Of a DNA stretch of 64,000 nucleotides, positions 40,501 to 64,000 are shown piece after piece. The stretch covers positions 2,480-66,479 of the forward strand of contig CATFLP010000104.1 in assembly GCA_949514915.1 (NCBI GenBank), given 5' to 3'. The translations under genes and the position numbers were made by a program. This stretch comes from Methanobacteriota archaeon (GTDB taxonomy: Archaea > Thermoplasmatota > Poseidoniia > Poseidoniales > Poseidoniaceae). The notes under the pieces were generated by a model. It had not been told where the DNA came from and made no database searches. It saw only the letters and a list, made by a program, of their open reading frames with translations. Numbering within the stretch: the first letter of the stretch is position 1; every line of letters starts with the position of its first letter.

Positions 40501-43500
40501 ATTGTTGAAAATCCAATGGCAGGTGGGACCTTTAATTTATCTGGAACAATAGAATCAGATAATGGAACTTCGTTAATGAATAGGAACGGTGTGCCTTTGT
40601 TGGCACAGGTTCAAATCACAATGGATGGTCAATCAATTCAGTACGTTGATGGACAAATAAATGCTAATGGAACTTGGTATGCAAATGTATATGTTGAACC
40701 TACAACACCTGCAGGAACACATGAAATTAGAGTTGCATATAATCCACAAGTACCGTTCTACATAAATAGTTCAGTATTTGATACAATTGACATTAGAGGA
40801 TATGCAGTAATTGACTTCCTTGAACCAGGTAATTTACAGAATGCAGATTCTAAAGATAGGGGGACCTCTGTAGATGTTGTAGTTCGCGTCTTTGATAATG
40901 CAGGTCAACCAGTACCAAATGCGTTGGTTAATGTAGATTTATTAACAACAAGTGAAACTGGAACTTTGATTACAAACGCATCAGGTTTAGGAGAGGTTAC
41001 AATTAATATTCCACAAGATGTAAATCCTGGAATTTTTACTTTATTTGCATCTTGGCCTGGAAATGTACAAACAATTGGAAGTACTGGTATTGAGGGAGGT
41101 AACTCTTCAGTTAATTTTGTTGTATTGGCACATACAGAATTAACTCTTGATTCAGTAGAAGGTAGTATGATTGTTGGTGAAAATATATGGGTTAATGGAA
41201 CATTACTTGATGATGTTGGTAATCCCTTATTAGGCGTTGATGGATTAGCTGCTGGTGGATTAGTAAGGCTGTATATCGATAATTTGCCAATTGCTACAAG
41301 CATTAGTGATGGAAATACGGGATTATATTCAATAGAATATGAATTGCCAGAATGGATGAGTGCAGGATCTCATAGTATGCGTGTAGAGTTTAGTGGAGGA
41401 TTTTTGTGGGTAGCCCCATATGCGAATGGAGATTCAGTAAACCCAGAATATTATTGGAATTCTTCATATCCTTCACCTGATCAAGAATTTGATGTATTTG
41501 TCCCTACTGAAGTTGTAGTGATTACACCACAAGGAAGTCAAGTAGATCGAGGTTCTGACTTGATTATTAATGGAACATTAGTAGATATCCAAAATAGAGA
41601 ATTAGGAGGAAGGACTCTGCAAATTTTTGTAGGTGCAAATGATGGAACTCCAGATTATTTTGTGTCAACTAATGAGTATGGAATATTTACAATTTCTTTA
41701 CGTGTGCCTGATGATCAGCCACTAGGTGAACTTGATATTACGATAAGATTTGATGGTGATGATTTCAATCTAAGTTCAGAATCTATCTCTAAGTGGTATG
41801 TATATGCAACAACTTCAGTTTCTATTGATGAATTATCACCTCAAACATTGGGTGATAATATTACAATTACAGGTTTAATTATAGATAATCTTGAAGAATC
41901 ACTAGATCAACACCAATTAAGAATAACACTTGATGGAGTAGAAATTGGTATAATTAACAGTAGTTCTGATGGTTCATGGACTTTTGATTGGGTTATACCT
42001 CCTGGAACAAATTGGGGAGAACATACAATTGGAGTGAGAGCACCTAATCAAGGATATTATCGTGAAAGTTATGCAGAAACATCCTTGTTTGTAGCTCATA
42101 GAAGTTCTTTAGAATATAGTTTAGAGCAAGAATCTGTAGTAAGAGGAGAAAGTTGGAATTTGTCTGGAATACTTTACGATGCAGATGATTTATCGAAGAT
42201 AGGTCTAGGGAATGAAACATTAACTGTTTACTTAGATGGTGTTTTACAGCCACAATCAATTCAAACTGAATCTGATGGTTCGTGGACTTATTATTTGCCA
42301 GTTGATATGTCATTGGAACGTGGAAAACATACTATTTTAGTTGAATTTGCTGGAACAATAACTCATGTTGGAAGTTCTCAAGAGGTTGAAGTCACTGCTT
42401 GGTCTGAAGTAAATATTCAATTTACAGAACTTTCTTCGGAATATGTGGTTCGGGGCTCAGATGAATTCCCAATAGAGATATATGGGGAAATTTCTGAGAT
42501 CGGTGGTAATAATTACAAGTTTTCTAATTTATCCTTGTCTCTTTTGACTGAAGATGGAACTTTAATCTCAAGTCAGCTGAATTGGACAGTAATAGGTACA
42601 CAATTATTCTATATTAGTGCAATAGCACCTACTACTTTATCACCAGGTAATTTAGTTTTAGTAGTTGAATTTTCAGGTTCTGATGAAGAATACTTAGTAT
42701 CTAATTCAAATAATCTGACAATGTTATTGAAAGTAGATGCCACCTTTGAGATGGACTTGGAAACAATTGTTTTGGGTGAAAGAGAAGATATTTATGGAAA
42801 TATTACTGTTACTGCTGACGATACAAGTCAACCATTAGAAGGAATTAGTGTTATTTTGACTTTAGGAAATGAAACAGGGAATTTAATAACAAGGACCTTA
42901 ATTACTAACGAGTTTGGTGTAGCAGAAATAAACTTAGAAAACACACCACCTTATTCAGATACTACATCTTTTGGAACAGTTGAATTAGAGTTAACATCAG
43001 ATGATTCTAGGATTTCAAATAAATCTTTAGTGACATTACAAGCAAAGGTTCCAAATTCCTTAATTTATCAATCAGTTGAAGTAGAAAGCGGCCCATCAGG
43101 TTTTGTTTGGGCTTCATTAGTATCTCTAGTAGTATTAGCAGGAGTTGGTATAATGTGGTATAGAAAGAGAAAACAAGATGTGTTGGATGAGATTGCTAGT
43201 ATCTTTAGTTATACTGCAGAATTACTTGCTCATGGAGATGAAATAAGAGAATCAGTATTCCATTGTTATGAGGACCTTTGTAGAGTATTAACAAAACATG
43301 GTTATCTAAGAAGAGACTTTGAAACAGTAAGGGAATTTGAGATGGCTTTGAGAAGTGCACTTCCTATTCGTGAGAACTTCTTAATTGAATTAGATAATGT
43401 ATTCGAAGAAGCAAGATACTCAAGACATGAGATGAACACACAAGATGCACTGAGGGCACAATCAGCTTTAGAAGGTGTACAAAGTGAATTGGTAAGAATG

Positions 43501-43551
43501 AATGTAGGTAAAGGCGGTAGGGAAGATCCCTCTCCTGAGATAGAAGCCTAG
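34579..43551 (+). CDS. Giant (2990 aa) surface protein: TSP3-like Ca-binding Asp repeats, transglutaminase-like cysteine-protease core, about 2000 aa of Ig-like beta-sandwich repeats, C-terminal TM and a DUF4129-like cytoplasmic tail
   Basis: N-terminal TM or signal sequence. More than 20 DxDxDG..D..E repeats (e.g. DSDGDGLPDGWE, DTDADGLSDGWEVANGLDPTD). TGase-like Cys-His-Asp core (GTCSDFVTVFVTMARLAGIPARKVSGF ... WAEFHL ... GWIPIDP at about 37480-37700). C-terminal TM (VWASLVSLVVLAGVGIMWY) and a tail (YEDLCRVLTKHGYLRRDFETVREFEMAL...FEEARYSRHE) resembling DUF4129. Confidence 0.8.
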   Translation: MISYTEIQSGRAKENEINLLIIKQRRSIFMIILLLGVTFATIQFASWQAMASSDQDGDGLITSIEYLLNTQIQNWDSDGDGLPDGWEWKYGLNPLSASVGDDGQTGDPDGDQLTNLQEYNYGLPPNWDNSNTPDVLDNGVWWNGTVPVNNWNEEDALQYNQPGCGDSGADGVGGVILCDEDPVGDICSDGFDNDHDGQIDAQDSDNDGDAVCGSNDDDGDGLIDEDPYGWDTDADGLSDGWEVANGLDPTDPTGNNGAQGDPDGDGMINIYEYINPSWDTQCNAADCFWPAPSHYAPSDVMTGTESPCNPVTGDGPNGCANLVAEVDGNTQTNPNNPDTDGDSISDGDEVTIWLTDPTEADTDGDGLTDGVEINSGYGNPAQATDPRNNNTDGDAWDDGDEDVNFNGQIDGNESDPTRREDTGDFDEDGIDNWEENLTCTDWNNADTDYGGVLDGDEVNPLHGTDPCDSLVDEVSTILSWGSATLTLSDASAFNPNGGKGWYQSTSGILTEFDYAAKVGNQLNNVNVAPSGGDIVLAKDGSWCRMDAEADGTIFTTRQYCDDDFYDTDGDGLADWQERTAFFGYFSNHTNVDSDGDGQNDYDEVMGATDPLIACENSLDADNDGVNDYFETTTGCNLVYIGVLSGGNDNYVTDPLIFDTDNGGVSDYQEYFDGTNPEDDPSDDINPQDTDGDGIPDSIENLTGTDWRNPDTDGGGMSDYAECPPQFWATLCNGSNYDPFDPTDDVTDENVVFWANTTSNLLDRDSTLYWRVNTYDNYTGGGYGIDASSHPSQLMSPNYLNTTWIADSTYSNGTISWNMAYNSPISNGLTVPMPHNWEALDIWSDPTSKLERWDRVSTVTADGSPLFELTTQAKQLWYEEADLDDSEPHIPSSLELNLPSYFSDGVSNESIVDTITQEVIADSGETSGFGMAFALAEYLRQGNETLFYQINYNGSGVDPSDDIVWHILNNSKEGTCSDFVTVFVTMARLAGIPARKVSGFMNGEQTTDGYEVSSTNAAVWAEFHLRSVSTGADLGWIPIDPCPQPLEIELVNMTYIPDTWDRDGLTNITIEGDLVYSSNGTGIDGNTVRGYLAQAPQDPEASVTTDSSLLVGTATVTNATGHFIITGVPAEAVMPGFQKIVVVNSAEEYIPPRIHEYPGHINVTDDSVLVHTSSTSIGQGATTDFSGTLNFENIPLLDVSEMANLTVQLDYTSQVSGAESVTTEVGKGGEWSFSLTLDPSEPLGPLQFTVSFLGWEDPDETYPGSPIHLRASSIIVNATVSLAPDVQGTVEGHEVNSSRLLVGNYVYVNGTANSAGANPSPMDGLLELGIRANGSGLDYLVVFNQSVNGSFSISYLLNASSINIPAGLIDVRLRFYPTTLDTTDDADLGDEYLLRSYLTFEIYATPQMRGSDANVAVTAKDHRGISTDLDLTGTFNHFFDSALVNTSVDPLSNPIPVNWATLSSMLPGDYVFETNFGGSELYEASSSQEFIRIQGYAALQVSLSSNWIHIGDVGYLTGQLIDEDKSPPGPITGNATEIILQILEQEQLKDTIIGNGTVDVNTGEFNISFMMPSGLSAGAYLFSVTPSGLIEPEYYIMPRAINVTVGLESEFKLEVADSEGDPVNGANVLNAPLSGDLEFGVFAIDIGNNSRVSDRTIHAVFDWNGSQQALPDEVTQTWNIPDGRGGFTTEAGSANFTWTIPGGTAPGTYILRIYIDDDVSDLISDIDPARWIGNETFVDVTIQVPSAVVIDWIQPEVTAGAFFSVSGHVEDGDDNTRVFNGPISLKVYFLTDEDEQLITTYVTNATGWFNISSPTDSSLDGVSSGDRIVVVEVINGSNIYYLPSSDQASIHVTGVSAFVELNHSNPIIINRGETLEVFSKLVETSATCSACAFDTPIDVRQKNKPVYFLFDETWLPGQVTNSTGEVGFSYQIPFDQPLGTVVLTLYYNGSNDVHPTTRNLPSTIIRSVTILVMDPIVENPMAGGTFNLSGTIESDNGTSLMNRNGVPLLAQVQITMDGQSIQYVDGQINANGTWYANVYVEPTTPAGTHEIRVAYNPQVPFYINSSVFDTIDIRGYAVIDFLEPGNLQNADSKDRGTSVDVVVRVFDNAGQPVPNALVNVDLLTTSETGTLITNASGLGEVTINIPQDVNPGIFTLFASWPGNVQTIGSTGIEGGNSSVNFVVLAHTELTLDSVEGSMIVGENIWVNGTLLDDVGNPLLGVDGLAAGGLVRLYIDNLPIATSISDGNTGLYSIEYELPEWMSAGSHSMRVEFSGGFLWVAPYANGDSVNPEYYWNSSYPSPDQEFDVFVPTEVVVITPQGSQVDRGSDLIINGTLVDIQNRELGGRTLQIFVGANDGTPDYFVSTNEYGIFTISLRVPDDQPLGELDITIRFDGDDFNLSSESISKWYVYATTSVSIDELSPQTLGDNITITGLIIDNLEESLDQHQLRITLDGVEIGIINSSSDGSWTFDWVIPPGTNWGEHTIGVRAPNQGYYRESYAETSLFVAHRSSLEYSLEQESVVRGESWNLSGILYDADDLSKIGLGNETLTVYLDGVLQPQSIQTESDGSWTYYLPVDMSLERGKHTILVEFAGTITHVGSSQEVEVTAWSEVNIQFTELSSEYVVRGSDEFPIEIYGEISEIGGNNYKFSNLSLSLLTEDGTLISSQLNWTVIGTQLFYISAIAPTTLSPGNLVLVVEFSGSDEEYLVSNSNNLTMLLKVDATFEMDLETIVLGEREDIYGNITVTADDTSQPLEGISVILTLGNETGNLITRTLITNEFGVAEINLENTPPYSDTTSFGTVELELTSDDSRISNKSLVTLQAKVPNSLIYQSVEVESGPSGFVWASLVSLVVLAGVGIMWYRKRKQDVLDEIASIFSYTAELLAHGDEIRESVFHCYEDLCRVLTKHGYLRRDFETVREFEMALRSALPIRENFLIELDNVFEEARYSRHEMNTQDALRAQSALEGVQSELVRMNVGKGGREDPSPEIEA

Positions 43552-53909: not shown

Positions 53910-54035
53910 ATGTCCGACAATAATGCCGATGAAAATCCTAGTGAGCCAACACAGGGATTGTATTTATTCTCGTTTATTTTTGCTTTCGCGGTAATGTGCT
54001 ATATCATGGTAACAAAAGGAAATTTCCTTGCTTAG
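53910..54035 (+). CDS. Unannotated small membrane protein (41 aa)
   Basis: ATG-to-TAG ORF translated by hand: MSDNNADENPSEPTQGLYLFSFIFAFAVMCYIMVTKGNFLA. It has an acidic N-terminus and a single C-terminal TM, in the style of Sec61-beta or similar tail-anchored proteins. Confidence 0.3.
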   Translation: MSDNNADENPSEPTQGLYLFSFIFAFAVMCYIMVTKGNFLA

Positions 54036-54057
54036 ATTCATTTTTGTGGAGATTTTT

Positions 54058-55893
54058 ATGTGTAGCATAGGTGTAATGCTCGGCTCACCTGAAGTAGATG
54101 TATTGAATAAAATGAATAAAATTCAATCTCATAGAGGACCGGATGGATCAAATGTATGGTATGATGATAAATGTGGTTTTGCACATAATAGATTAGCTAT
54201 TGTCGACATTCAAGGTTCAAATCAGCCAATTGTCTCTGATGAAGGAGTTGTATTAATCCACAATGGTGAAATTTACAATCATGATAAAATCAAACAAAAT
54301 CTATTATATTCCTGTAAAACTAAAGGAGATAGTGAATCAATAATTGCACTTCATAATAAATACTCCAAAAAAACTTCTTTTGAAATTATTAAAGAAACAT
54401 CACTTAAATCAGGAATATTAGTTTCTAATGGATTTGATGCAAAGGATAACCCCGCAACAAGACATATTGAATGGGTTAAGAAGTTAGATGGAATTTGGGG
54501 GTTTGCACTATGGGATTCAAAATGTAATGAATTAATAATTTGTAGAGACCCTATGGGAGTTAAACCATTAATGAGGACAATCGTTGGGAATTCATTATTA
54601 GTTGCTAGTGAATTAAAAGCCTTTTCAGCACATCCAGAATTCATTTCAAAATTTGATTTCAACGCATTAAATCTTAGGCTTGCTTACGAATATCCATTAG
54701 ATAGAACAACATTGATTGAGAATGTTTACCAAGTAGGTGCAGGTGTTATAGAAACATGGAGTCTTGATAATCTTAATCGTCCTGTTTTGACAGGTATTTG
54801 TAAATATTCTAATGTAAAGAATAAACAAAATAAAAGTTGGAATCAAGAAAACAATATTCAAAAATTACTTGATAGTTTCAAATCTAGTTTAGTTGATCGT
54901 TTGATGTCTGACGTCCCAGTAGGAATTGTTCTTTCAGGGGGATTGGATTCAAGTTTAGTGGCTGCATTAGCACATGAAGCAGCAGGAAAAGCAGGAAAAA
55001 CAGTTCCTGAATGTTGGACAGTTGCAGATTCTGAAGATAATCCTGATTGGATTGCAGCAGAGTTAGTTGCAAATCAATTTGATCTTAAGCATCATCAACA
55101 TATTCTTGAGGATAATTCATTTGAACGGATATTGCCAAAATTAGTTTGGCATGGAGAAGATTTAGATGTTACAGTACTCTTTTTCCAACCCTTATTTGAA
55201 AAAATGTCTAAACACGTGAAAGTTGGGTTATGTGGTCAAGGTGCAGATGAATTACATGCTGGCTATCCAAGATATCGTAATTTAGTTCAGCATAGAGAAA
55301 CCTTAAATCAAAGATTAAAAAATATTAGGTTCCAATTAAATAAGGAAAAAATAGGCTTACATTCATCTTGGGATGATGATAATTTAAATCCAGATGAAAT
55401 ATTTAAATCTCTTAATTCTACTTTAGATTTTGAAATGCAAAGAGGGCAATTGACAAATTTCCAATTAAGACTTGTAGATCGTCATTCAATGGCTCATGGT
55501 TTGGAAGTCAGAGTCCCATTCTTAGGTAAAACACATTGGAATGAATCAAGGCAGATACCTTTTGATTGGAGACTTTCATCTAATGCAAAACATGGAGATG
55601 AAAAATTAGCTCTAAGGCATGCAGCAAAATTAACAGGATTACCAACTTCAATTACAGAAAGAGCTAAATTACCAGCAGGCAAGGCAACATCTCCTTCTTT
55701 ATTTGATAAATTTATTTCTGAATATGAATCTTATTTGGATCCATTAAAAGAGAGATATTTTGAGCAGAGTAAGTTATTAACTAAGCAGCCAGAGTTATTG
55801 TTGGGCTTAGGTTTATTTGAATCATTAATTATTGGGCAAAATGAATTTAGTGCAAATAAAACAGTTGATGAGATATTAAGTAATTTAATTTGA
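54058..55893 (+). CDS. asnB: Asparagine synthetase (glutamine-hydrolysing)
   Basis: Ntn-amidotransferase N-terminus MCSIGVM (Cys2) and PP-loop SGGLDSS. The true start is the ATG at 54058, not the tool start at 54028. Confidence 0.85.
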   Translation: MCSIGVMLGSPEVDVLNKMNKIQSHRGPDGSNVWYDDKCGFAHNRLAIVDIQGSNQPIVSDEGVVLIHNGEIYNHDKIKQNLLYSCKTKGDSESIIALHNKYSKKTSFEIIKETSLKSGILVSNGFDAKDNPATRHIEWVKKLDGIWGFALWDSKCNELIICRDPMGVKPLMRTIVGNSLLVASELKAFSAHPEFISKFDFNALNLRLAYEYPLDRTTLIENVYQVGAGVIETWSLDNLNRPVLTGICKYSNVKNKQNKSWNQENNIQKLLDSFKSSLVDRLMSDVPVGIVLSGGLDSSLVAALAHEAAGKAGKTVPECWTVADSEDNPDWIAAELVANQFDLKHHQHILEDNSFERILPKLVWHGEDLDVTVLFFQPLFEKMSKHVKVGLCGQGADELHAGYPRYRNLVQHRETLNQRLKNIRFQLNKEKIGLHSSWDDDNLNPDEIFKSLNSTLDFEMQRGQLTNFQLRLVDRHSMAHGLEVRVPFLGKTHWNESRQIPFDWRLSSNAKHGDEKLALRHAAKLTGLPTSITERAKLPAGKATSPSLFDKFISEYESYLDPLKERYFEQSKLLTKQPELLLGLGLFESLIIGQNEFSANKTVDEILSNLI

Positions 55894-55902
55894 GGGTTTG
55901 TA

Positions 55903-57090
55903 ATGTTAGATAATATATTTCAAAATTTAGAAAATCTTAATGAGTTTGAAAATTGGTTTTTGAAAAAAACTGAAAATATTGAGATGCCCATATATGCTAG
56001 TGTAGATGTGCGATATTCTGGTTGGAAGGTATCAGTTGTTGATGCTAATTCATTTCCAGCAGGATTTAACAATATTTCAAAAGATTTGATTCCTAATTTG
56101 TCAAAATCGCTTAATGAATATTTTAGATGTATAAATTTAGATATTAAACATATTCATATATTGCCAGAATCTCATACTAGAAACACTGCTTATGTAGAAA
56201 ATATTTCAAGAATCAAAGAGATTGTTGAAAAAGCAGGTTATAATGTGACAGTAGGCTCTACTGAATTAAATCGATATAAATTATTAGAAGGATTAACAGA
56301 AGATGTAGAATTAAGTGCAGTTGAAGTTAATGATGAGGATAATATTGAAATTAACGGATCAATTCCTGATTTGGTGTTGTTAAATAATGATTTAACAGGT
56401 GGAAAAATGCCAGGTCTTTCTGGCACTGTTCTTCCAAGAAAAGAGATGGGTTGGTACAATAGAAGAAAATCTGATCATTATAGGATTTTAGAAACCTTAG
56501 TTAATGAAGTTTCTGAAATATTAAAAATTGACCCTTGGTTATTAATGCCTATGTGGTTTGTAAGTGAAGATAAATGCTTAGAATTAGATGCTTGTATAAA
56601 CAAATTATCTAATGATATAGACAATATGATTGGAAAAATTAAATTGAAATATAAAAAATATGGAATAGATTCTGAGCCTGTTGTATTTATTAAAAATGAT
56701 AGAGGTACATATGGTTTAGGAATTATTTCAATAAAATCTGGAAAAGAGATTAGGAATTTATCTAATCGTATGATAAAAAGGCTAACTTATGGAAAAGGAG
56801 GTGCTTCAGCTGAAAATTTCCTTATTCAAGAAGGAATCCCGACAAATCTCAATAGTGATTCTTCAGTAATTGAGCCAGTTGGTTATACTATTGGCGGAAT
56901 GGAATCAAATTGGTTTTTCAGAGCAAATCCCAAAAAGAATAAATTTGAAAATTTAAATAGCCCATCATCTATTTTTTTACAAGAAAGTCAACTAAGTGAT
57001 GGAATTATTAATTCAGAAAGAAAATATTGGTTAAATTTAGTTTCAAAATTATCATATCTTGCAATGGGGTTAGAAAGTATTCAAAAGTAA
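55903..57090 (+). CDS. Hypothetical protein (395 aa) downstream of asnB
   Basis: No family recognised by eye. Its position 10 nt after asnB suggests co-transcription. Confidence 0.35.
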   Translation: MLDNIFQNLENLNEFENWFLKKTENIEMPIYASVDVRYSGWKVSVVDANSFPAGFNNISKDLIPNLSKSLNEYFRCINLDIKHIHILPESHTRNTAYVENISRIKEIVEKAGYNVTVGSTELNRYKLLEGLTEDVELSAVEVNDEDNIEINGSIPDLVLLNNDLTGGKMPGLSGTVLPRKEMGWYNRRKSDHYRILETLVNEVSEILKIDPWLLMPMWFVSEDKCLELDACINKLSNDIDNMIGKIKLKYKKYGIDSEPVVFIKNDRGTYGLGIISIKSGKEIRNLSNRMIKRLTYGKGGASAENFLIQEGIPTNLNSDSSVIEPVGYTIGGMESNWFFRANPKKNKFENLNSPSSIFLQESQLSDGIINSERKYWLNLVSKLSYLAMGLESIQK

Positions 57091-57147: not shown

Positions 57148-57942
57148 ATGAAGCAAACAATTTCGATATTAATGATTTTTCTATTTGCTACTTTAATTGC
57201 ACCAACTGTTAGTTCTTCAGTTCCTCTTGAGATTACAGAATTTAATGATATGGTTTTGGAATATAATGAACTTATTTCAACTAATAATTCTCCAGTATAT
57301 ACGGTTAATCATTTTTCAAATTTTGATGCAATTAATGATAATGCAGACGGCGTTCATCCAAACAGAAATGGAGATCTGAAAATGGCAGCTGCATGGACAA
57401 ATTCTTTACTCTCAACAAATTTAAATTTAAGTAAAAATTATTCAATTATGCCTTTAGGTGATTCGATAACACATTTAAATTATCGATATGATTTATGGTT
57501 AAATCTAAAAGAAGCGAATATTATATTTGATTTTGTTGGAAATGAAAATCATTTGCCATGGGGTGCAGATGAATCTAATCTTGAATTTGATTCTGATCAT
57601 GAAGGGCATGGTGGTTGGAGATCTGATCAGATATCATATAATATTGAATCTTGGGTTAAGTTAAATACTCCAGATATAGTATTATTTCATATTGGTACAA
57701 ATGATCTTGCTCAAGGATATTCGCCCTCTCATGTAATTGAACACATAGGAAAAACAATTGAAATACTTAGATTATATAACCCTGATATAATTATTTTTGT
57801 TGCACAAATAATACCCTATGATCTTGAAGTAAATGTAAGTCCGGCAGATTCTTTATTTGGGGGATTGGAAATAACGTTTTTAGTTCTAGGGTTACTAATG
57901 ATTGGGGAAGTGATTAGGAAGAATTATTTTAAGGCTAATTAA
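57148..57942 (+). CDS. Secreted/membrane-anchored SGNH (GDSL) hydrolase, possibly circularly permuted
   Basis: Signal peptide; block I PLGDSITH; block III HIGTNDL. A block-V-like DGVHPN lies N-terminal to block I rather than at the C-terminus. C-terminal hydrophobic anchor. Confidence 0.6.
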   Translation: MKQTISILMIFLFATLIAPTVSSSVPLEITEFNDMVLEYNELISTNNSPVYTVNHFSNFDAINDNADGVHPNRNGDLKMAAAWTNSLLSTNLNLSKNYSIMPLGDSITHLNYRYDLWLNLKEANIIFDFVGNENHLPWGADESNLEFDSDHEGHGGWRSDQISYNIESWVKLNTPDIVLFHIGTNDLAQGYSPSHVIEHIGKTIEILRLYNPDIIIFVAQIIPYDLEVNVSPADSLFGGLEITFLVLGLLMIGEVIRKNYFKAN

Positions 57943-58238
57943 TTATCTTCTTCAGGTTCTTTATTTTCATCAGATTCTTCCATTCCAACAATTTCATAGT
58001 TTGATGGAAATAATGCAATAACTATCCCAGAAACCAAACATATAGTAGCCCAAATCCAATTTGCTTTAGTAAATAATTCTAGTGAAATAGCAACTAGGAT
58101 TAAACCACCAAGATTAGAGGTCCAAACTAAACTTTTGAATGTAGAAAGACTAACCCCTTTAGTTTCCTTGTTTCTAACAGGGCCAAATTCTCCACCAAAT
58201 CTCTGAGCATCCGTTTTGGCCATATATTCACCTTTCAA
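57939..58238 (-). CDS. Small two-TM membrane protein (last gene of the respiratory cluster)
   Basis: 99 aa with two hydrophobic helices and an acidic C-terminus; its start overlaps the ferredoxin gene end by 11 nt. Confidence 0.4.
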   Translation of the reverse strand: MKGEYMAKTDAQRFGGEFGPVRNKETKGVSLSTFKSLVWTSNLGGLILVAISLELFTKANWIWATICLVSGIVIALFPSNYEIVGMEESDENKEPEEDN

Positions 58239-58560
58239 TCATTGAAATTGCATCTGTTGGGCAAACCAATACGCATAATCTGCATCCTGTACAATCATCT
58301 CGAATTATTCTTGCCTTCCTATTGGATGGTACTTCAATAAGAGGGCTTTTAATTGCTTTATGAAACATTTCAATTGCATCATCATCACATACAGTTGGGC
58401 ATTGATCACATCCAATACATGCATCTTCGTGAACATATGCTACCATATTTTCTCCAGATTTTATTTCTTGTAATTTTTTACCTTTTGCCTTATCCATAAT
58501 CATACTAACTCGAGACCTTTCTTGCTCCATTCTTATTTGCAACTCCTCTCGAGTAGTCAT
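58228..58560 (-). CDS. 2x[4Fe-4S] ferredoxin
   Basis: Two CxxCxxCxxxCP motifs: CIGCDQCPTVC and CTGCRLCVLVCP. Confidence 0.8.
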   Translation of the reverse strand: MTTREELQIRMEQERSRVSMIMDKAKGKKLQEIKSGENMVAYVHEDACIGCDQCPTVCDDDAIEMFHKAIKSPLIEVPSNRKARIIRDDCTGCRLCVLVCPTDAISMIER

Positions 58561-58590
58561 ATTATCTTCCTCTTACTCAAATATTTATTA

Positions 58591-61338
58591 TTAAGCCTCA
58601 ATCTTTGTTGCATTTTTTTCCAATAATATTTTTTCATTATTTTTCTTTTCATTAACTTGATTTGCTAAGAATGTAACCACATCTAGAATTTCAAAATTAT
58701 GTGTTGGGTCGCCTTCAAATTTAAGGCATTCAAAGTGGCTAACACATTTTGGACATGATGTTAGCATAACGTCTGCTCCTGTTGCTTTTACTTCTTCAAA
58801 GCGTTCTAAACGGATTGAACGACTATTTTCATTACAAGACATCATACTTGAAACACCACAGCAGAGACCATCTTCTCCATGGTGTTCCATTTCTACAAGT
58901 TCAACTCCTTCAACATCTTTGATTAAATTTCTTGGTTCTTCATATAAGCCCACTTGCCTTCCAAGTCTGCAAGGATCATGGTATGTTACAGTGGTTTCTT
59001 GTTCAGTTTTCAGATTCATATCAAATCCATTTTCTATTAAGAATTCTGTTGTATGCATTACTTTTATATTTTCTAATTCATAATCTTTAGCAAATGTTCT
59101 AAAACATTCTGCACAACTACTTACTAACGTATCAATACCACTTTCTTTCAATTTCTTTTCATTATATGATTTTAATTTTTCAAACACTTCGGTCATTCCT
59201 TGCCATTTTTGGTCATGGCCACAGCATTTTAGGAAGTCTCTACCAAGATAAGTGACTTCCTCACCCATCTCTTCGAATAGAGTAAATGCAGAAGCTGTAC
59301 TTGCACCTAAATTCATTGAACCTTCATTAACATGGCTAAATACCATTTCTTGATCTATGAAATCAACACAACCTGGATAATATCCAATGTTTGAATCAAT
59401 TGGGTATTCTTCAACAGGAATGAATGCTTCATCAGCACCTTCTTCAATTTCTGCATTTAGAACAGCCCTTAGGATTGTATGTGGTATTTCAGCCTCTGGT
59501 GCAGTACCTACGGTTAATGATCTTCTTATGTCTACATATGAGTCATAATCAACTAATTGTGGGCACACATTAGTACAAGCAGAACATGTAAGACATGTAT
59601 ACATTGGAACTCCATCATCTTCATTATTCCAAGTATTGTAAATGATGTTTAATTTGTCTCCTGCATTAAAGAGTCTTACAGGACATGCATCATCACAAAG
59701 GTCACAACCGTAGCACTTGTTCATTTCATATTCATATCCTCTAGCCATTCCCCTAAGTACAATAAATGCAAGAGCACCTAAAGTAAGACAAGGTATGAAT
59801 AATGAATAAATTAATTTTGCATCAAGACTTTTTGGATTTTTCTTAAATCCTGGATTGATTAACATCTCATATGATGATTCATCATCTTCTGATGAAAGAT
59901 TTACAGATTGACCATCCATTGAATGACCGTCAGAATAGATTAATAGAGGTTGGAATGCAGAAATAGATGCAGTATAATTAGTGTATACTTGAGTGCCTGC
60001 TTCAATACCCTCTGGGTCAACATGTAATTCCCATGTATATTCTCCAGGTGTTACGTACTCTTCAATATCTAATGAACAATCAGAACTTAATACTTCTTCT
60101 GAATTTTTGTAAAGAATAAATGTTGATGTAACTGTGCCAACGTTTCTTATGCTTGTTTTAGCACTACAGCTCATTTTTATTGGGACGCTATCAAGTCCCA
60201 TGTTGGTTATTGTAAGAGTTCCTTCTGTTTGGTTTTCAGAATTACTGAAACTTTCAAGAATTGAACCTTCTGTAGTAATTTTATTGATATTTAAATCAGA
60301 GTTGTGATGGTTATTTACATCGGCAAAATCAATGATGTATTCGTTTGTTGGTTGATATAATGCAGCGTTGTATTGAGAACTCATTTTAGCACTTATGATG
60401 GTTCCTTCTTCAGCCCAATCTGTAGTATATTCAATTACATAGTCAAGAGGTTGATCATACATTTTTTCCAGAGTTTCAATATCATCCATTGCTCCAAGTC
60501 CTCCTGCTTCCCAAAAACCTCTCTCATAGTAATCAAATGTTGAAACACTTACTAAGAGTGCAATTACAAAACCACCTACAATCAAGTTCTTACCTACATT
60601 AGGTGTTGTTCTTGCACCAATACTACTTACTAAAAATGCCCTTGCCGCAAAATAAATCAAAATCCATATCAAAATACCTGTAAGAACCCAAGGAATTGTA
60701 TTGAATATTTCTGCAACCCATGGTTCTCTAACTCCACAAATTAATTCTCCGTGATCAACGTGACATGAGTCAGTTCTATTTTTCCCATATAAATCTAGGA
60801 AGATATTAATCGAAAACACACTGATAAACCATACGTGTGCAAGATATACAACTCCTGCAGTAGCAAACCAAGGATCTTCAACACCTCTTTTTGCTGTACC
60901 TCCAAGGATTGGAGGTAATGCAAGGATACCAACTGGTAATCCTGTAAGCATAATTCCCCAAGCACCAGCATTTAGTGGATATACAGGTTGATTGAAAAAT
61001 GATCCAATCGGGCCCATGGGAATGTCAATTTGAGGTAAATATTCACCCCACCTTAGGTATCCATAACTGAATAATACATACCAATCTGGGAAAACAAAAC
61101 CAGCTTGTGCAATAGGATCAGCTGCAGAATGCAATGGAGGTGGAATTAAATAACCATAAAATGTTAATGTAGCCATGATTGATAAAAATATAATAGTGTC
61201 TCTTAACACTTCGTGAGGCCATAATAAATGCCCCATAAATGTCCTTTTTCTAATTTCAGAATCATCAGAATCTAGTAATTTTTCTTTTTCATTCATGTAG
61301 GTTTCTGCAACTCTACCTAAATTCCCTAATAATCCCAT
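58591..61338 (-). CDS. Fusion protein: cytochrome b C-terminal (PetD/subunit-IV-like) membrane domain, extracytoplasmic beta-rich domain, TM, then a 2x[4Fe-4S] plus two CCG-domain (HdrD/GlpC/SdhC-like) module
   Basis: N-terminal LWPHEV...PDWYVLFSYGYLR matches the PEWY Qo-site motif of the cytochrome b C-terminal half. It is followed by CYGCDLCDDACP / CLTCSACTNVCP and the CCG motifs CCGHDQ and CCGVSS. Confidence 0.75.
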   Translation of the reverse strand: MGLLGNLGRVAETYMNEKEKLLDSDDSEIRKRTFMGHLLWPHEVLRDTIIFLSIMATLTFYGYLIPPPLHSAADPIAQAGFVFPDWYVLFSYGYLRWGEYLPQIDIPMGPIGSFFNQPVYPLNAGAWGIMLTGLPVGILALPPILGGTAKRGVEDPWFATAGVVYLAHVWFISVFSINIFLDLYGKNRTDSCHVDHGELICGVREPWVAEIFNTIPWVLTGILIWILIYFAARAFLVSSIGARTTPNVGKNLIVGGFVIALLVSVSTFDYYERGFWEAGGLGAMDDIETLEKMYDQPLDYVIEYTTDWAEEGTIISAKMSSQYNAALYQPTNEYIIDFADVNNHHNSDLNINKITTEGSILESFSNSENQTEGTLTITNMGLDSVPIKMSCSAKTSIRNVGTVTSTFILYKNSEEVLSSDCSLDIEEYVTPGEYTWELHVDPEGIEAGTQVYTNYTASISAFQPLLIYSDGHSMDGQSVNLSSEDDESSYEMLINPGFKKNPKSLDAKLIYSLFIPCLTLGALAFIVLRGMARGYEYEMNKCYGCDLCDDACPVRLFNAGDKLNIIYNTWNNEDDGVPMYTCLTCSACTNVCPQLVDYDSYVDIRRSLTVGTAPEAEIPHTILRAVLNAEIEEGADEAFIPVEEYPIDSNIGYYPGCVDFIDQEMVFSHVNEGSMNLGASTASAFTLFEEMGEEVTYLGRDFLKCCGHDQKWQGMTEVFEKLKSYNEKKLKESGIDTLVSSCAECFRTFAKDYELENIKVMHTTEFLIENGFDMNLKTEQETTVTYHDPCRLGRQVGLYEEPRNLIKDVEGVELVEMEHHGEDGLCCGVSSMMSCNENSRSIRLERFEEVKATGADVMLTSCPKCVSHFECLKFEGDPTHNFEILDVVTFLANQVNEKKNNEKILLEKNATKIEA

Positions 61339-61351
61339 AATATCTCCTCAC

Positions 61352-62242
61352 TCAATGTGGCTCCGCAATTCCTTGTACCCATACAATGAATAAATGTACG
61401 ATAATCAATGTTGTAACTACAACTGGTAATATGAATACGTGAATGAAATACATTCTTGTTACTGTTGCACCAGATAATGAAGTCCCTCCAAACATCAATG
61501 TTGCAACTTGTGGGCCTACAAGAGGAGTTGCAGCTGCCATATTTATTCCAATAGTGGCGGCACCAAATGCTAATGCATCCCACGGAAGTAGGTATCCTGA
61601 ATATCCAAAGAAAATTGTGAAAAACATAAGTCCAACACCAATTAACCAATTTAATTCACGAGGGTTTCTATAAGCTCCTGTAAAGTAAACTCTGCACATG
61701 TGTAGGAATACTGAAGCAACCATGAAGTGTGTAGCCCAATGATGGATTGAACGAATGATGTATCCAAATGGTAATTCTAGCATTATGAATTCCATTGATG
61801 CATATGCAGGTGTAGGATCAAGCTCAAGATTTCCACCTGGTACGTAGTAAATACCTAGCACAGTACCAGTTATTACAAGTATTATGAATGCTAAGAATGA
61901 AATTCCTCCAAGACAATAAAGTGGGTACCAATACCAGATAATTTTTAATTTATATTTTTCAGCATGCGTGAGCGGTAATTGTCTGTGCATGGTATAGAAT
62001 GTATCTCTGCTCATAGCCCAATAATCTTGTAATCTAAATCTTGTATCAAGCCATGAGAAAACCCAAAGAAATGATCTTTCTGCTACACCCATTTTTCCAG
62101 ATGATTCTACTGCTCTTAGAATCTCTCTCCTCGGTGTTTGATCATTTTCTTTACGTAGTGTTAATGCTACTAATACACAGACAATCGCTATGAAAACCCA
62201 AAGAACCCAAAACATCGTATTCATCATCATTACCTCAATCAC
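61352..62242 (-). CDS. Cytochrome b, N-terminal (b6-like) half with four heme-ligating His
   Basis: IRSIHHWATHFMVASVFLHMCRVYF, GYSGYLLPW, and the second His pair in RMYFIHVFILP / IVHLFIV. The as-called N-terminus contains an extra TM helix. Confidence 0.85.
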   Translation of the reverse strand: MIEVMMMNTMFWVLWVFIAIVCVLVALTLRKENDQTPRREILRAVESSGKMGVAERSFLWVFSWLDTRFRLQDYWAMSRDTFYTMHRQLPLTHAEKYKLKIIWYWYPLYCLGGISFLAFIILVITGTVLGIYYVPGGNLELDPTPAYASMEFIMLELPFGYIIRSIHHWATHFMVASVFLHMCRVYFTGAYRNPRELNWLIGVGLMFFTIFFGYSGYLLPWDALAFGAATIGINMAAATPLVGPQVATLMFGGTSLSGATVTRMYFIHVFILPVVVTTLIIVHLFIVWVQGIAEPH

Positions 62243-63080
62243 AAAATGTTAACCAGTCTACAAATTCAGTTACACCCTCAATTATTCCTCCATTAATATT
62301 GGCAGGGATTATAGGAATTCCCACTGGCGCTGGACCTCCTACTTTTTTTATTCCTGCAAATTGAAATGTTTGACCTGTTGCACGGTTTCTATTCTCATTT
62401 ACTTCTAGTGCGGTAGGGTCAAATCTACTACTGTGACAAATACAAAATAATTTATTGCCTCCTTCTTCAGTCCCTCCAGGTGCCCAACTATCTTCTGTGA
62501 AATTATTACTCACTAATTGCCATCCCGGAATACAACAAAGATGAGGGCACCTTCCAAAAGAGATTATAATGCCATCATTTGGAGTAATTATTGGATGTTC
62601 TTCTGCTAAATCTTCAAAATGGCCAATATATTTTCCAGTAGCGTCAACCCCCTCACCAAATTGATATCTAGGAACATTTACTTCTAGTGCTTTTGCCTTA
62701 TTCTCATTATGAGGTACATATACTACATTTACAGGAACTCCGTTCCAAATTCCTGATGCTCCTGCCATTCCAGCAACGCTTTTTGAAGCTTCACTAATGA
62801 ATTCATCTAATTTCATTTCTTGTAGGTGTTTTGAACCATACCAAGCATCATCTTCTCTTCCTTTTGCCCAATATTTTACAGCTAAATCTCCACCGCCACC
62901 TCCACCACCAGGCATTAGTACTGCAGCGAAGCCAATAACTCCAAAAGTTGCAGCAAGAACTCCTGCGGCTGTATTAAAACCATAACGTATAAATTGCCTA
63001 CGATCAATTACTGAACCAAGAAGTTCCTTTTTTGCGGTGTTTTTACTTGGAATCTTTAGTTCAAAATCTCTACTCATCAA
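62235..63080 (-). CDS. Rieske [2Fe-2S] protein with twin-arginine (Tat) signal
   Basis: Tat motif DRRQFIRYG plus a hydrophobic anchor; poly-Gly hinge; Rieske boxes CPHLCC and CICHSSRFD. Confidence 0.85.
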   Translation of the reverse strand: MMSRDFELKIPSKNTAKKELLGSVIDRRQFIRYGFNTAAGVLAATFGVIGFAAVLMPGGGGGGGDLAVKYWAKGREDDAWYGSKHLQEMKLDEFISEASKSVAGMAGASGIWNGVPVNVVYVPHNENKAKALEVNVPRYQFGEGVDATGKYIGHFEDLAEEHPIITPNDGIIISFGRCPHLCCIPGWQLVSNNFTEDSWAPGGTEEGGNKLFCICHSSRFDPTALEVNENRNRATGQTFQFAGIKKVGGPAPVGIPIIPANINGGIIEGVTEFVDWLTFCD

Positions 63081-63085
63081 ATCAC

Positions 63086-63547
63086 CTATACTTTGTATTC
63101 ATACCAATCTTTTTCGTGTTTTCTTTTTGAATGTTCTGGAATAAATTTGTTTCTTTCGTGTTTTATTACAATTAAGTCAGGCAGCACCCATTTTTGATAT
63201 ACTATTGCCATAATGATAATTGTACTTAATGACAAGAAAAGATGGTAAGATAATTGTTGTTGGTCCCAACCGTTCATTAATCCATAAGCCATTGTGCCTG
63301 TCCAATAAGTTACCCAAAATATTCCCCATATGAACAATAAGGAAACTAATGCACTACCTCCAGAAGGAGATATTGTTGCTTTAACAATAGTGCCTGGTTC
63401 AGCAGGAGTAAATACGCCATGGTCAACAGCCCTTTGAAAATCTTCCTTTTCAAGATCAACACCTTCTAGTGCTTTTTTGGCATCTTTAATACTTATTTTT
63501 CCAAGTGACACTTCATGTAGTAACTTTTCAAGTAAATCAGTTGCCAT
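63086..63547 (-). CDS. Membrane protein of the bc cluster (CbsB-like by position), unknown function
   Basis: 153 aa with about 3 TM helices, immediately upstream of the Rieske gene on the same strand. Confidence 0.4.
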   Translation of the reverse strand: MATDLLEKLLHEVSLGKISIKDAKKALEGVDLEKEDFQRAVDHGVFTPAEPGTIVKATISPSGGSALVSLLFIWGIFWVTYWTGTMAYGLMNGWDQQQLSYHLFLSLSTIIIMAIVYQKWVLPDLIVIKHERNKFIPEHSKRKHEKDWYEYKV

Positions 63548-64000
63548 TATTGGTCCCCCCTTCTCATATGTTTATATCTTAATTGCAATAAATTGGTTCT
63601 ACCAGTATAAGAATGGCTAAATCCATAACGAAGCATAAATCCAGAAAATATAATCACAATGATTACTGCTCCAAATCCCAGTAATCCCAACCAGTGTGCT
63701 CTAAATTTTGCACCCATGTCGTGTAAATCAACATGTCCTTCATCTGCAGCAGGTGGTTCTATAGCGCCATCTCCTGAAAATATGGCTCTACGAGAATCTA
63801 AAATTTCAGCAGGAGTTTTTTCTGTACTTTCTGGGATGTGGAATGTCACTCTGTTCCACATATCTCCTAAATTAGCATCAGCGCCATTGACGCTGTTTAA
63901 TGAAATCCAAAATGTAACTTTTCCAGTATTTTCCTCTGGAGCAGTCCATGAGATTGTCCATGCACGATTTTCAGATCTTGCCCCTTCTTCAGTATGCGTT
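63547..64000 (-). CDS. Partial ORF (N-terminus beyond the window end): extracytoplasmic domain plus C-terminal TM anchor, first gene of the bc cluster
   Basis: The frame stays open from the annotated Met (63861) to the window edge (...THTEEGARSENRAWTISWTAPEENTGKVTFWISLNSVNGADANLGDMWNRV...). C-terminal TM HWLGLLGFGAVIIVIIFSGFML. Confidence 0.5.
   Translation of the reverse strand, partial: THTEEGARSENRAWTISWTAPEENTGKVTFWISLNSVNGADANLGDMWNRVTFHIPESTEKTPAEILDSRRAIFSGDGAIEPPAADEGHVDLHDMGAKFRAHWLGLLGFGAVIIVIIFSGFMLRYGFSHSYTGRTNLLQLRYKHMRRGDQ

Follow-up and report, generated by a model that had tools for sequence, protein, structure and literature searches.

Where do electrons enter and leave a Rieske/cytochrome b complex in which one half of the cytochrome b is fused to iron-sulfur (Fe-S) domains of the heterodisulfide reductase (Hdr) type? 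The question is raised by seven genes at one end of a 64,000-nucleotide stretch of DNA (hereafter, the window; contig CATFLP010000104.1, positions 2,480 to 66,479, of assembly GCA_949514915.1) from an archaeon of the family Poseidoniaceae. The host belongs to the marine group II (MGII) archaea, which are described in the literature as globally abundant. The seven genes form an operon for a single Rieske/cytochrome b6-type quinol oxidase, the complex III equivalent of MGII, and subunit IV (PetD) of this enzyme is part of an Hdr-like Fe-S protein. As for its function, we tentatively favor a reading that we regard as just short of probable: a working Q-cycle complex, in which an Fe-S wire on the negative (n, cytoplasmic) side of the membrane would feed ferredoxin-level electrons to haem cn and the Qn site.

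The seven open reading frames (ORFs) are co-directional on the minus strand (window positions 57939-64000) and are separated by -1, 5, -8, 13, 30, and -11 nucleotides (Table 1). Their places, order, and domain content agree with the original prediction, which had been made from the DNA letters without database searches. In a metagenomic contig that is 97 per cent identical to the window (L001 among the loci that we mapped), a divergent TPR/FtsZ pair lies upstream of gene 1, and the operon is therefore limited to seven genes. An identical seven-gene order is found in a 1.5-Mb contig of the Thalassarchaeaceae type (MGIIb), and the whole operon is syntenic across MGIIa- and MGIIb-type contigs. 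Together with the many full-length homologs of gene 5 described below, this synteny indicates that the arrangement is not due to chance. The original prediction had allowed for the possibility that homologous clusters are ordinary SoxLN/cytochrome bc loci with a separate, unlinked HdrD, but the operon proved to be conserved as such in MGII (Poseidoniales).

Table 1. Genes of the operon and domains of the gene 5 product, in window coordinates (TM, transmembrane; Tat, twin-arginine translocation)
Feature	Position	Strand	Remarks
Gene 1, 3' part	63547..64000	-	ORF runs off window end; C-terminal 150 amino acids, one TM helix
Gene 2, 153-amino-acid membrane protein, DUF7318-like	63086..63547	-	PF24002 E = 1.8e-4, below threshold
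Gene 3, Rieske [2Fe-2S] protein	62235..63080	-	Tat signal, N-terminal TM helix
Gene 4, short b6-type cytochrome b	61352..62242	-	Extra N-terminal TM helix; CLGG at residue 110
Gene 5, 915-amino-acid fusion	58591..61338	-	Six TM helices; N-terminus and Fe-S domains predicted cytoplasmic
Gene 5 residues 1-280, subunit IV/PetD-like	60499..61338	-	PDWY in ef loop; five TM helices
Gene 5 residues 281-505, MGII-specific extracellular beta-sandwich insert	59824..60498	-	Absent from relatives of 540-710 amino acids
Gene 5 residues 506-610, sixth TM helix and 2x cubane [4Fe-4S] (HdrC-like)	59509..59823	-	Fer4_8/9/10 matches
Gene 5 residues 645-880, two CCG (non-cubane, HdrB-like) domains	58699..59406	-	All ten cysteines
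Gene 6, 110-amino-acid 2x[4Fe-4S] ferredoxin	58228..58560	-	40-amino-acid N-terminal extension; two Cx2Cx2Cx3C motifs
Gene 7, 99-amino-acid membrane protein	57939..58238	-	Two TM helices, 37-55 and 59-77

The fusion of PetD to Fe-S and CCG domains in gene 5, on which the original prediction turned, is real. Two stretches of the protein match the CCG model (PF02754, E = 4.8e-23), and the suggested profile search of the 915-amino-acid ORF bore out the CCG and Fer4 domains directly. The cytochrome b domain, in contrast, was recovered only through a profile and relatives: PF00032 is not significant on the single sequence (E = 0.067), and single-sequence matches of the PetD part in the PDB reach only E = 0.1-0.6. 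Pfam alone was therefore rejected as a test, as it gave neither a Rieske call nor a significant Cytochrom_B_C match in the operon, and the matter was resolved by a family profile and by distant homologs. The profile, built from an alignment of 25 members, one of them the window protein, matches Rhodobacter cytochrome b in its C-terminal half (residues 231-353, E = 1.4e-13), b6f subunit IV (E = 1e-9), HdrC (E = 6e-10), and HdrB (E = 4e-9). When 1.8 billion representatives were searched with gene 5 residues 1-296, only 83 relatives were recovered. The distant ones among them (27-40 per cent identity, 540-790 amino acids) score above the PF00032 gathering threshold and contain Fer4 and two CCG domains as well.

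The same 25-member alignment shows which residues the family keeps. P84, D85, and W86 of the PDWY motif (at residue 84) are invariant, as are all eight cysteines of the two cubane motifs of the form CxxCxxCxxxCP (CYGCDLCDDACP at residue 542 and CLTCSACTNVCP at 582). The CCG ligands C657, C705, C706, C742, C745, C790, C826, C827, C862, and C865 are invariant or nearly so, and all 18 cluster cysteines are thus conserved across diverse members. Taken together, the profile match to the C-terminal half of cytochrome b and the invariant PDW and cysteine residues identify gene 5 as subunit IV joined to HdrC-like and HdrB-like domains. In two relatives (P0150 and P0168), CVG or CTG replaces CCG in the first CCG domain, the change that gives EtfD its linear [3Fe-4S] cluster; another protein (P0157) fuses PetD to a Laminin_G_3 domain.

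Homologs of gene 5 are annotated as heterodisulfide reductase D or Fe-S oxidoreductase, and those with names come from metagenome-assembled genomes (MAGs) of Poseidoniaceae, Thalassarchaeaceae, and 'Euryarchaeota/Thermoplasmatota archaeon'. PetD in MGII occurs only as this fusion. A gene-calling artifact, or an Fe-S module that is a structural or regulatory appendage (e.g. a redox sensor) carrying no bulk electron flow, is hardly credible: the best 120 of 456 homologs are all full-length single ORFs (61-97 per cent identity) from many independent assemblies, every cluster ligand is invariant, and the fusion, or an adjacent split version of it, is kept across several archaeal classes.

The TM helices of gene 5 are predicted at residues 48-66, 128-146, 159-177, 222-240, 252-270, and 509-527. 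Its short relatives have four helices ahead of the Fe-S domain, as in the eight-helix split cytochrome b of haloarchaea, and the MGII protein adds two helices and an extracellular beta-sandwich of approximately 220 residues. Because the number of helices is even in both versions, the Fe-S domains should lie in the cytoplasm, on the same (n) side as the N-terminus. The insert is placed outside the cell on the basis of the length difference in the alignment and of the TM helices that flank it, and AlphaFold2 (AF2) predicts strands in it at residues 353-468 with a predicted local distance difference test score (pLDDT) of about 80. The AF2 monomer as a whole is of moderate confidence (pLDDT 65) and was used for secondary structure and domain matches only; in Foldseek, it matches EtfD, LutA, and HdrB.

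Genes 3 and 4 supply the rest of the quinol-oxidizing core. Gene 4 matches PF00033 (E = 1.9e-41), and its best PDB matches are cytochrome b6 chains (7r0w_I, E = 2e-45). The alignment with b6 shows that gene 4 keeps all haem-b ligands (the equivalents of His86, His100, His187, and His202) and the predicted haem-cn cysteine, as C110 of its 'YCLGG' motif aligns to Cys35 of b6, the residue that covalently binds haem cn (also termed ci). Model support for gene 3 is weak, with no Pfam match and a TIGR01416 match of E = 1.6e-5. The protein nonetheless carries an RRQFI Tat motif at residue 27, a TM helix at 38-56, and the two cluster boxes CPHLCC (178) and CICH (213); its alignment to PDB entry 7yr9 (E = 0.047) spans both boxes, and it shares matches with the PF00355-positive Rieske proteins of two mapped loci (L007 and L008). 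Gene 2 gives reciprocal phmmer matches with DUF7318 proteins of L007 and many other loci, in which the gene is always situated directly 5' of the Rieske gene, and it is the putative conserved small subunit of this archaeal cluster type.

The ferredoxin encoded by gene 6 (Fer4_21, E = 1.2e-17) is the probable 'orphan RnfB' of MGII annotations. Its assignment as a genuine RnfB was rejected, because it scores 51.2 bits against the TIGR01944 cut-off of 68.7 and the operon contains no rnf genes; RnfACDEG are reported to be absent from MGII (PMC6336850). Gene 7 has no family match in Pfam or NCBIfam. In MGII, in marine group III (MGIII), and in locus L030, it lies 3' of the ferredoxin gene, and no cluster without the Fe-S module contains it.

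In bc1 and b6f complexes, the original prediction noted, electrons leave via cytochrome c1/f or a blue copper protein, and it took the present core to lack such an outlet and to be followed by an HdrD-like domain instead. This part of the proposal needs to be corrected. An Hdr-like domain on the n side cannot replace an acceptor on the positive (p) side of the membrane, and gene 1 occupies the very slot in which related clusters encode a cupredoxin or a pentahaem cytochrome c with the same type of anchor. In its full form (276 amino acids, on contig L001), gene 1 encodes a signal peptide, a beta-sandwich head, a C-terminal TM helix, and a strikingly conserved cytoplasmic tail. The protein meets the NCBIfam 'choice-of-anchor V' model (E = 4e-29), and one homolog reaches the Pfam Reeler threshold. 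Across 45 distinct homologs, Cys51, His52, His128, and several Trp and Asp residues are 100 per cent conserved and Cys49 is 91 per cent conserved, and conservation extends to the residues directly behind the predicted signal cleavage site. There is thus an invariant CxCH/CH plus a His, with no CxxCH and no type-1 Cu motif. Neither a sequence match to cytochrome f nor its CxxCH haem site was found in gene 1, and no cytochrome f or c is recognizable by sequence in the window operon.

The heads that fill the slot of gene 1 in relatives are plastocyanin-family cupredoxins (L085, 4168-5010; L076, 4483-5100; L013, 2-418) or a pentahaem cytochrome c (L008/L009, 5092-5817), and they share the C-terminal anchor region with gene 1 at phmmer significance; with L018 (4050-4799), these loci present pentahaem cytochrome c, cupredoxin, and Reeler/choice-of-anchor V domains as exchangeable heads on one anchor type. 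Because redox heads of relatives fill the same slot on the same type of anchor, the head of gene 1 is most likely an exchangeable redox module too, and gene 1 the p-side acceptor of the Rieske protein. A cultured haloarchaeon, Halospeciosus flavus (L047; NZ_CP122312.1, 1598076-1612540), has the order choice-of-anchor V protein (347 amino acids)-DUF7318-Rieske-cytochrome b-PetD (331 amino acids) and is a possible experimental system for the p-side head.

To survey the wider family, we used the PetD part as a probe against the GTDB, with each species represented by a single genome, and mapped the resulting 80 loci by phmmer with the proteins of the window and a few proteins from relatives. No cultivable carrier of the Fe-S-bearing version is among these 80 loci. 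The common archaeal cluster consists of an anchored p-side head, DUF7318, Rieske, cytochrome b6, and PetD. PetD stands alone in haloarchaeal MAGs, the cultured H. flavus, Hydrothermarchaeota, and some Thermoplasmatota; it carries Fer4 and is followed by a separate CCG protein in MGIII and in MAGs labeled Methanomassiliicoccales; and it is fully fused to the Fe-S module in MGII, several Thermoplasmata, Bathyarchaeia, and Geothermarchaeales. Downstream of an Fe-S-bearing PetD, the genes always encode low-potential electron-transfer modules. These are a small ferredoxin 3' of the PetD-Fe-S gene in MGII and some Thermoplasmata; in MGIII, a homolog of gene 6 whose ferredoxin is preceded by a flavodoxin domain (PF00258, E = 2e-26) or by a further ferredoxin domain; polyferredoxin-MvhD/FlpD in other Thermoplasmata; and HdrC, HdrB, HdrA, and MvhD in L009, L012, and L016. 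In MGIII (L043-L083, e.g. L062 2899-6369), the order is PetD plus Fer4 (~350 amino acids), the CCG protein (~295 amino acids), the flavodoxin-ferredoxin or di-ferredoxin protein (280-336 amino acids), and a 167-amino-acid membrane protein resembling gene 7. Two loci with the MGIII architecture and its SLGG motif, labeled Chloroflexota (L046, NZTZ01000011.1) and Nitrosomonadaceae (L053, CAXGWP010000033.1), look like binning contamination rather than transfer. In several Thermoplasmata (L007 5343-7973; L025, L030, L032, and L037), the cytochrome b gene encodes 870-1070 amino acids with a large N-terminal extension, which contains a Big_5 domain in L007; extracellular beta-sandwich decorations seem to be common in the family.

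The closest unfused relatives of the Fe-S part of gene 5 are HdrD-like proteins of Methanoperedens (47-50 per cent identical), encoded beside hdrCB-hdrA-mvhD-frhB. We considered whether they belong to the unusual Rieske/cytochrome b cluster of Methanoperedens and rejected this, because they precede hdrCB-hdrA-mvhD-frhB.

The presence of the Fe-S module goes together with the haem-cn motif. In an alignment of 76 archaeal clusters, the cytochromes b of Fe-S-bearing clusters have the cysteine of CxGG in 28 of 59 cases and xLGG in 57 of 59, compared to 0 of 17 and 3 of 17 (GG), respectively, in complete PetD-only clusters. The apparent exceptions are three ORFs cut by contig ends and one Bacillota locus. 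Since known archaeal split cytochromes b lack the haem-ci cysteine according to published surveys (PMC3509893, PMC5600118) and Fe-S-bearing clusters have it, MGII-type enzymes extend the predicted haem-ci trait to archaea, exactly where the n-side Fe-S module is present.

MGII archaea are obligate aerobic heterotrophs that degrade proteins and fatty acids, and they have no canonical bc1 complex and no Rnf apart from the 'RnfB' (PMC6336850). With PetD present only in the fusion, the enzyme must also serve their ordinary aerobic chain; as the only complex III of an obligate aerobe, it would have to carry out the usual reaction at Qp, and gene 1 would be its outlet to the oxidase. On the p side, quinol would be oxidized at Qp, and one electron would pass from the Rieske protein to the membrane-anchored, Reeler/cytochrome-f-like head of gene 1 with its invariant Cys-His residues and on to a terminal oxidase.

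In aerobic archaeal heterotrophs, the oxidation of 2-oxoacids yields reduced ferredoxin, which has to be reoxidized. For this reason, delivery of ferredoxin electrons to haem cn and Qn appears to be the simplest use of the n-side module. The fused Fe-S chain would act as a wire ending beside haems cn and bn, through which reduced low-potential carriers could inject electrons into the Qn site. The carrier would be the gene 6 ferredoxin, charged by 2-oxoacid:ferredoxin oxidoreductases, with electron-transferring flavoprotein (ETF) as a possible second donor. The complex could then combine a ferredoxin(-level):quinone reductase with a quinol oxidase, and would be a permanently wired form of the route from ferredoxin to haem ci that has been proposed for cyclic flow in b6f. 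Entry from ferredoxin is suggested by the kinship of the Fe-S part with EtfD, by the haem-cn cysteine and its co-occurrence with the Fe-S module, and by the relatives, which keep the PetD-Fe-S link with other low-potential modules, and the cytoplasmic ferredoxin- or thiol-level link of the original prediction holds as the natural interpretation of the module on the same grounds.

Several observations weigh against ferredoxin entry. The case is built entirely from sequence, from which the direction of electron flow cannot be read. Arg207 of b6, near haem cn, is not conserved in gene 4, and most MGIII clusters have SLGG, with no cysteine, yet keep the Fe-S genes. Because the loci are phylogenetically related, the association of the motif with the Fe-S module (Fisher P-value = 3e-4 for the cysteine and 4e-10 for GG) is descriptive only. 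Both CCG domains retain five cysteines each, like catalytic HdrB/HdrD, whereas the distal site of EtfD and EMO is degenerate, and the best NCBIfam match of gene 5, although far below the cut-off, is the thiol:fumarate reductase TfrB.

The last two observations, the identity of the Methanoperedens relatives, which lie beside hdrCBA-mvhD, and the gshA gene that adjoins the operon both in the window and in L001 would all suit HdrDE-like thiol/disulfide chemistry, in which two complete non-cubane clusters would form a catalytic site for the reduction (or formation) of a disulfide or persulfide of a low-molecular-weight thiol or carrier protein and exchange electrons with the quinone pool via haems bn and cn. 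Conservation covers all ten CCG cysteines and hence also the second cysteine of CCG-1, which is lacking in EtfD. We nevertheless consider such chemistry unlikely. MGII are aerobic non-methanogens (PMC6336850), the operon has no thiol-carrier gene, the neighboring gshA is convergent and its adjacency is not kept in MGIIb, and some family members have CVG or CTG in CCG-1. Moreover, non-cubane domains serve as plain wires in EtfD and EMO, and the dedicated ferredoxin and flavodoxin partners would be left unexplained.

Mycobacterium smegmatis EtfD (9ojn) is the closest solved homolog of gene 5 residues 578-899 (E = 1e-23 when searched with the single sequence, E = 1e-43 with the family profile). 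This kinship raises the possibility that ETF docks on the CCG domain, as it does on the non-cubane domain of EMO (bioRxiv 10.64898/2026.08.18.745454), and that the complex serves MGII as their ETF:quinone oxidoreductase, in which case the ferredoxin would be an accessory. Acyl-CoA dehydrogenases are encoded by MGII, for which fatty-acid degradation is predicted (PMC6336850). However, neither the window operon and its surroundings nor any of the 88 mapped loci contain etf genes, and it is ferredoxin, flavodoxin, and MvhD modules that are kept as partners. We regard entry of beta-oxidation electrons via ETF as decidedly improbable.

The wiring that would admit ferredoxin electrons is identical to that required for their exit. 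In a bifurcating complex, the low-potential electron from Qp would pass via haems bp, bn, and cn into the Fe-S chain and reduce ferredoxin or flavodoxin, driven energetically by the high-potential branch to oxygen. Rieske/cytochrome b complexes that would produce NAD(P)H in an analogous way have been proposed in anammox bacteria (PMC12954380), and anaerobic relatives have HdrA-type bifurcating flavoproteins alongside the module. As the sole complex III in MGII, however, the enzyme could forgo Q-cycle recycling only at considerable cost. Aerobic heterotrophs whose 2-oxoacid oxidation depends on ferredoxin have too much of its reduced form rather than too little, an electron moving from bp toward the n side would run counter to the membrane potential, and the potential of typical 2x[4Fe-4S] ferredoxins (about -400 mV) would lie well below that of the b haems. 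An n-side exit is thus quite unlikely in our view: the reverse electron transfer raised in the original prediction is possible, but entry from ferredoxin into the quinone pool is the direction that we favor.

A bolder generalization can be drawn, although as a whole it is doubtful. Poseidoniales, MGIII, and many other archaea may share a class of Rieske/b6 complexes whose bp-bn-cn chain is wired to an Hdr-type module and ferredoxin or flavodoxin, acting as a ferredoxin:quinone reductase (FQR) or as a quinol-driven bifurcating ferredoxin reductase, with a new Reeler/cytochrome-f-fold protein carrying a CxCH-bound cofactor as the acceptor. If true, this acceptor would hint at the origin of cytochrome f, and a built-in reductase would make explicit the long-debated FQR function of haem ci.

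All parts of the operon are of known kinds: a b6-type core, Fe-S domains of the HdrD/EtfD type, and a ferredoxin. What is new is the covalent union of subunit IV with an Hdr-type module and its co-occurrence with the haem-ci motif in archaea; also new are the predicted roles of the 'HdrD'/'Fe-S oxidoreductase' and 'RnfB' of MGII genomes as parts of complex III and the modular putative p-side heads, including a Reeler-like one. We found no published description of a PetD-HdrD fusion in the searchable literature, outside of which Dibrova et al. (2013) lies. The suggestion that the complex had not been described as such stands for the fusion, but two studies came near: one reported the adjacency of hdrD-like and rnfB-like genes to complex III (PMC9038741), and the other remarked on an orphan RnfB and on an 'MGII specific' complex III (Tully 2019; PMC6336850).

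The operon would explain both of the latter, as subunit IV of the undefined 'MGII-specific complex III' was hidden in a protein annotated as HdrD, and the 'RnfB' would be a subunit or partner of the complex III equivalent. The fusion bears on the old question of what haem ci is for and whether n-side ferredoxin electrons enter b6-type complexes, and does so in a directly testable form. Within one family, interchangeable p-side heads (cupredoxin, multihaem c, and Reeler-like) are combined with interchangeable n-side modules (ferredoxin, flavodoxin, MvhD, and HdrABC), and this modularity is relevant to how Rieske/cytochrome b enzymes and Hdr/EtfD-type wires evolved. Ferredoxin entry would also change how ferredoxin reoxidation and energy yield are modeled in MGII.

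Elsewhere, the window is ordinary chromosome, with genes for flotillin, ribonucleotide reductase, class I LysRS, carbamoyl-phosphate synthase, XPD helicase, propionyl-CoA carboxylase, and a probable giant surface protein. The last of these, a 2990-amino-acid ORF at 34579-43551 (plus strand), has a transglutaminase core, Ig-like/macroglobulin domains, TSP3 repeats, and DUF4129; a 997-amino-acid ORF ahead of it (31501-34494) has no Pfam match. Past the 3' end of the operon and convergent to it are genes for an asparagine-synthase-like amidotransferase and a GshA-type glutamate-cysteine ligase (54028-57090, plus strand), with a GDSL lipase-like gene (57148-57942) in between. The pair may belong to a low-molecular-weight thiol pathway. 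Its adjacency is kept in L001 and L002 and lost in the MGIIb locus L003, and for this reason we rejected it as a clue to a thiol substrate.

Among known systems, the operon shares with b6f and with the b6c complexes of Firmicutes and heliobacteria a cytochrome b split between helices D and E, the four histidines, the CxGG cysteine, a Qp motif of the PEWY type (here PDWY), a Rieske protein with a Tat signal, and the b6 chains as best structural matches of gene 4. It differs from them in the fourth helix of subunit IV, to which MGII add two more helices and the extracellular domain, in the fusion of this subunit to an HdrCB-like Fe-S domain, and in its DUF7318-like small subunit. The halocyanin-Rieske/split cytochrome b clusters of haloarchaea (Baymann et al. 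2012, PMC3509893; subfamily N in Dibrova et al. 2017, PMC5600118) have the same archaeal split into 4+4 helices and the same upstream genes for a DUF7318-type protein and an anchored p-side head, and PetD-only relatives of this kind, including that of H. flavus, were recovered with the same PetD probe. However, the haloarchaeal type is without the haem-ci cysteine, the Fe-S fusion, and the ferredoxin gene.

The parallel to the Sulfolobus CbsAB-SoxLN cluster drawn in the original prediction extends to gene order (anchored extracytoplasmic protein, small membrane protein, Rieske, and cytochrome b) but not to homology. Genes 1 and 2 are choice-of-anchor V/Reeler-like and DUF7318-like and have no Pfam or NCBIfam match of the CbsA/CbsB kind. 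The cytochrome b is short, split, and b6-like, and a SoxN/SoxC type was rejected for gene 4 (83 bits for the SoxC model, compared to a cut-off of 740 bits). Anammox Rieske/cytochrome b complexes resemble the operon in their non-canonical redox partners and in a proposed link of the low-potential chain to cytoplasmic carriers; they are bacterial, their partners are an FAD/NAD(P) oxidoreductase and HAO-like proteins rather than HdrD-like ones, and PetD is not fused (PMC12954380).

The closest published parallel in gene content comes from Angelarchaeales, another order of Thermoplasmatota, in which the same association of hdrD-like and rnfB-like genes with complex III was reported and ferredoxin entry was proposed in one sentence (Diamond et al. 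2022, PMC9038741). The p-side partner there is plastocyanin-like, and the hdrD-like gene was not recognized as the missing PetD half (PMC9038741).

On the side of the Fe-S module, the HdrDE complex of Methanosarcinales likewise attaches two [4Fe-4S] clusters and two CCG domains with ten cysteines to a b-type cytochrome that communicates with a quinone-like carrier in the membrane. In HdrDE, electrons run from this quinol-like carrier to a disulfide. HdrE, however, is a separate five-helix subunit of the NarI type, whereas the module is here fused to subunit IV of a Rieske/b6 complex in an aerobic non-methanogen; the MGII operon contains no gene for HdrE (NarI-type cytochrome b) or HdrA, and HdrA and MvhD appear only in distant relatives.

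Mycobacterial EtfD and Syntrophus EMO also fuse a membrane domain to cubane and non-cubane clusters that lead to a haem beside a quinone site. Their membrane domain is not homologous to PetD but NarI-like, CCG-1 of EtfD has CTG and a linear [3Fe-4S] cluster where gene 5 keeps CCG, and the mapped loci have no ETF genes near the operon. In EtfD, the path from the donor to menaquinone, through CCG clusters, two cubanes, and haem b, is proven (PMC13083937), and EMO is a donor-to-quinone wire of the same kind (bioRxiv 10.64898/2026.08.18.745454); the clusters of both are spaced 8-9 A apart between the cytoplasmic donor and a haem b near menaquinone (PMC13083937; bioRxiv 10.64898/2026.08.18.745454). 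The MGII complex would resemble these enzymes in its wiring, with a Rieske/b6 core in place of the NarI-type cytochrome b.

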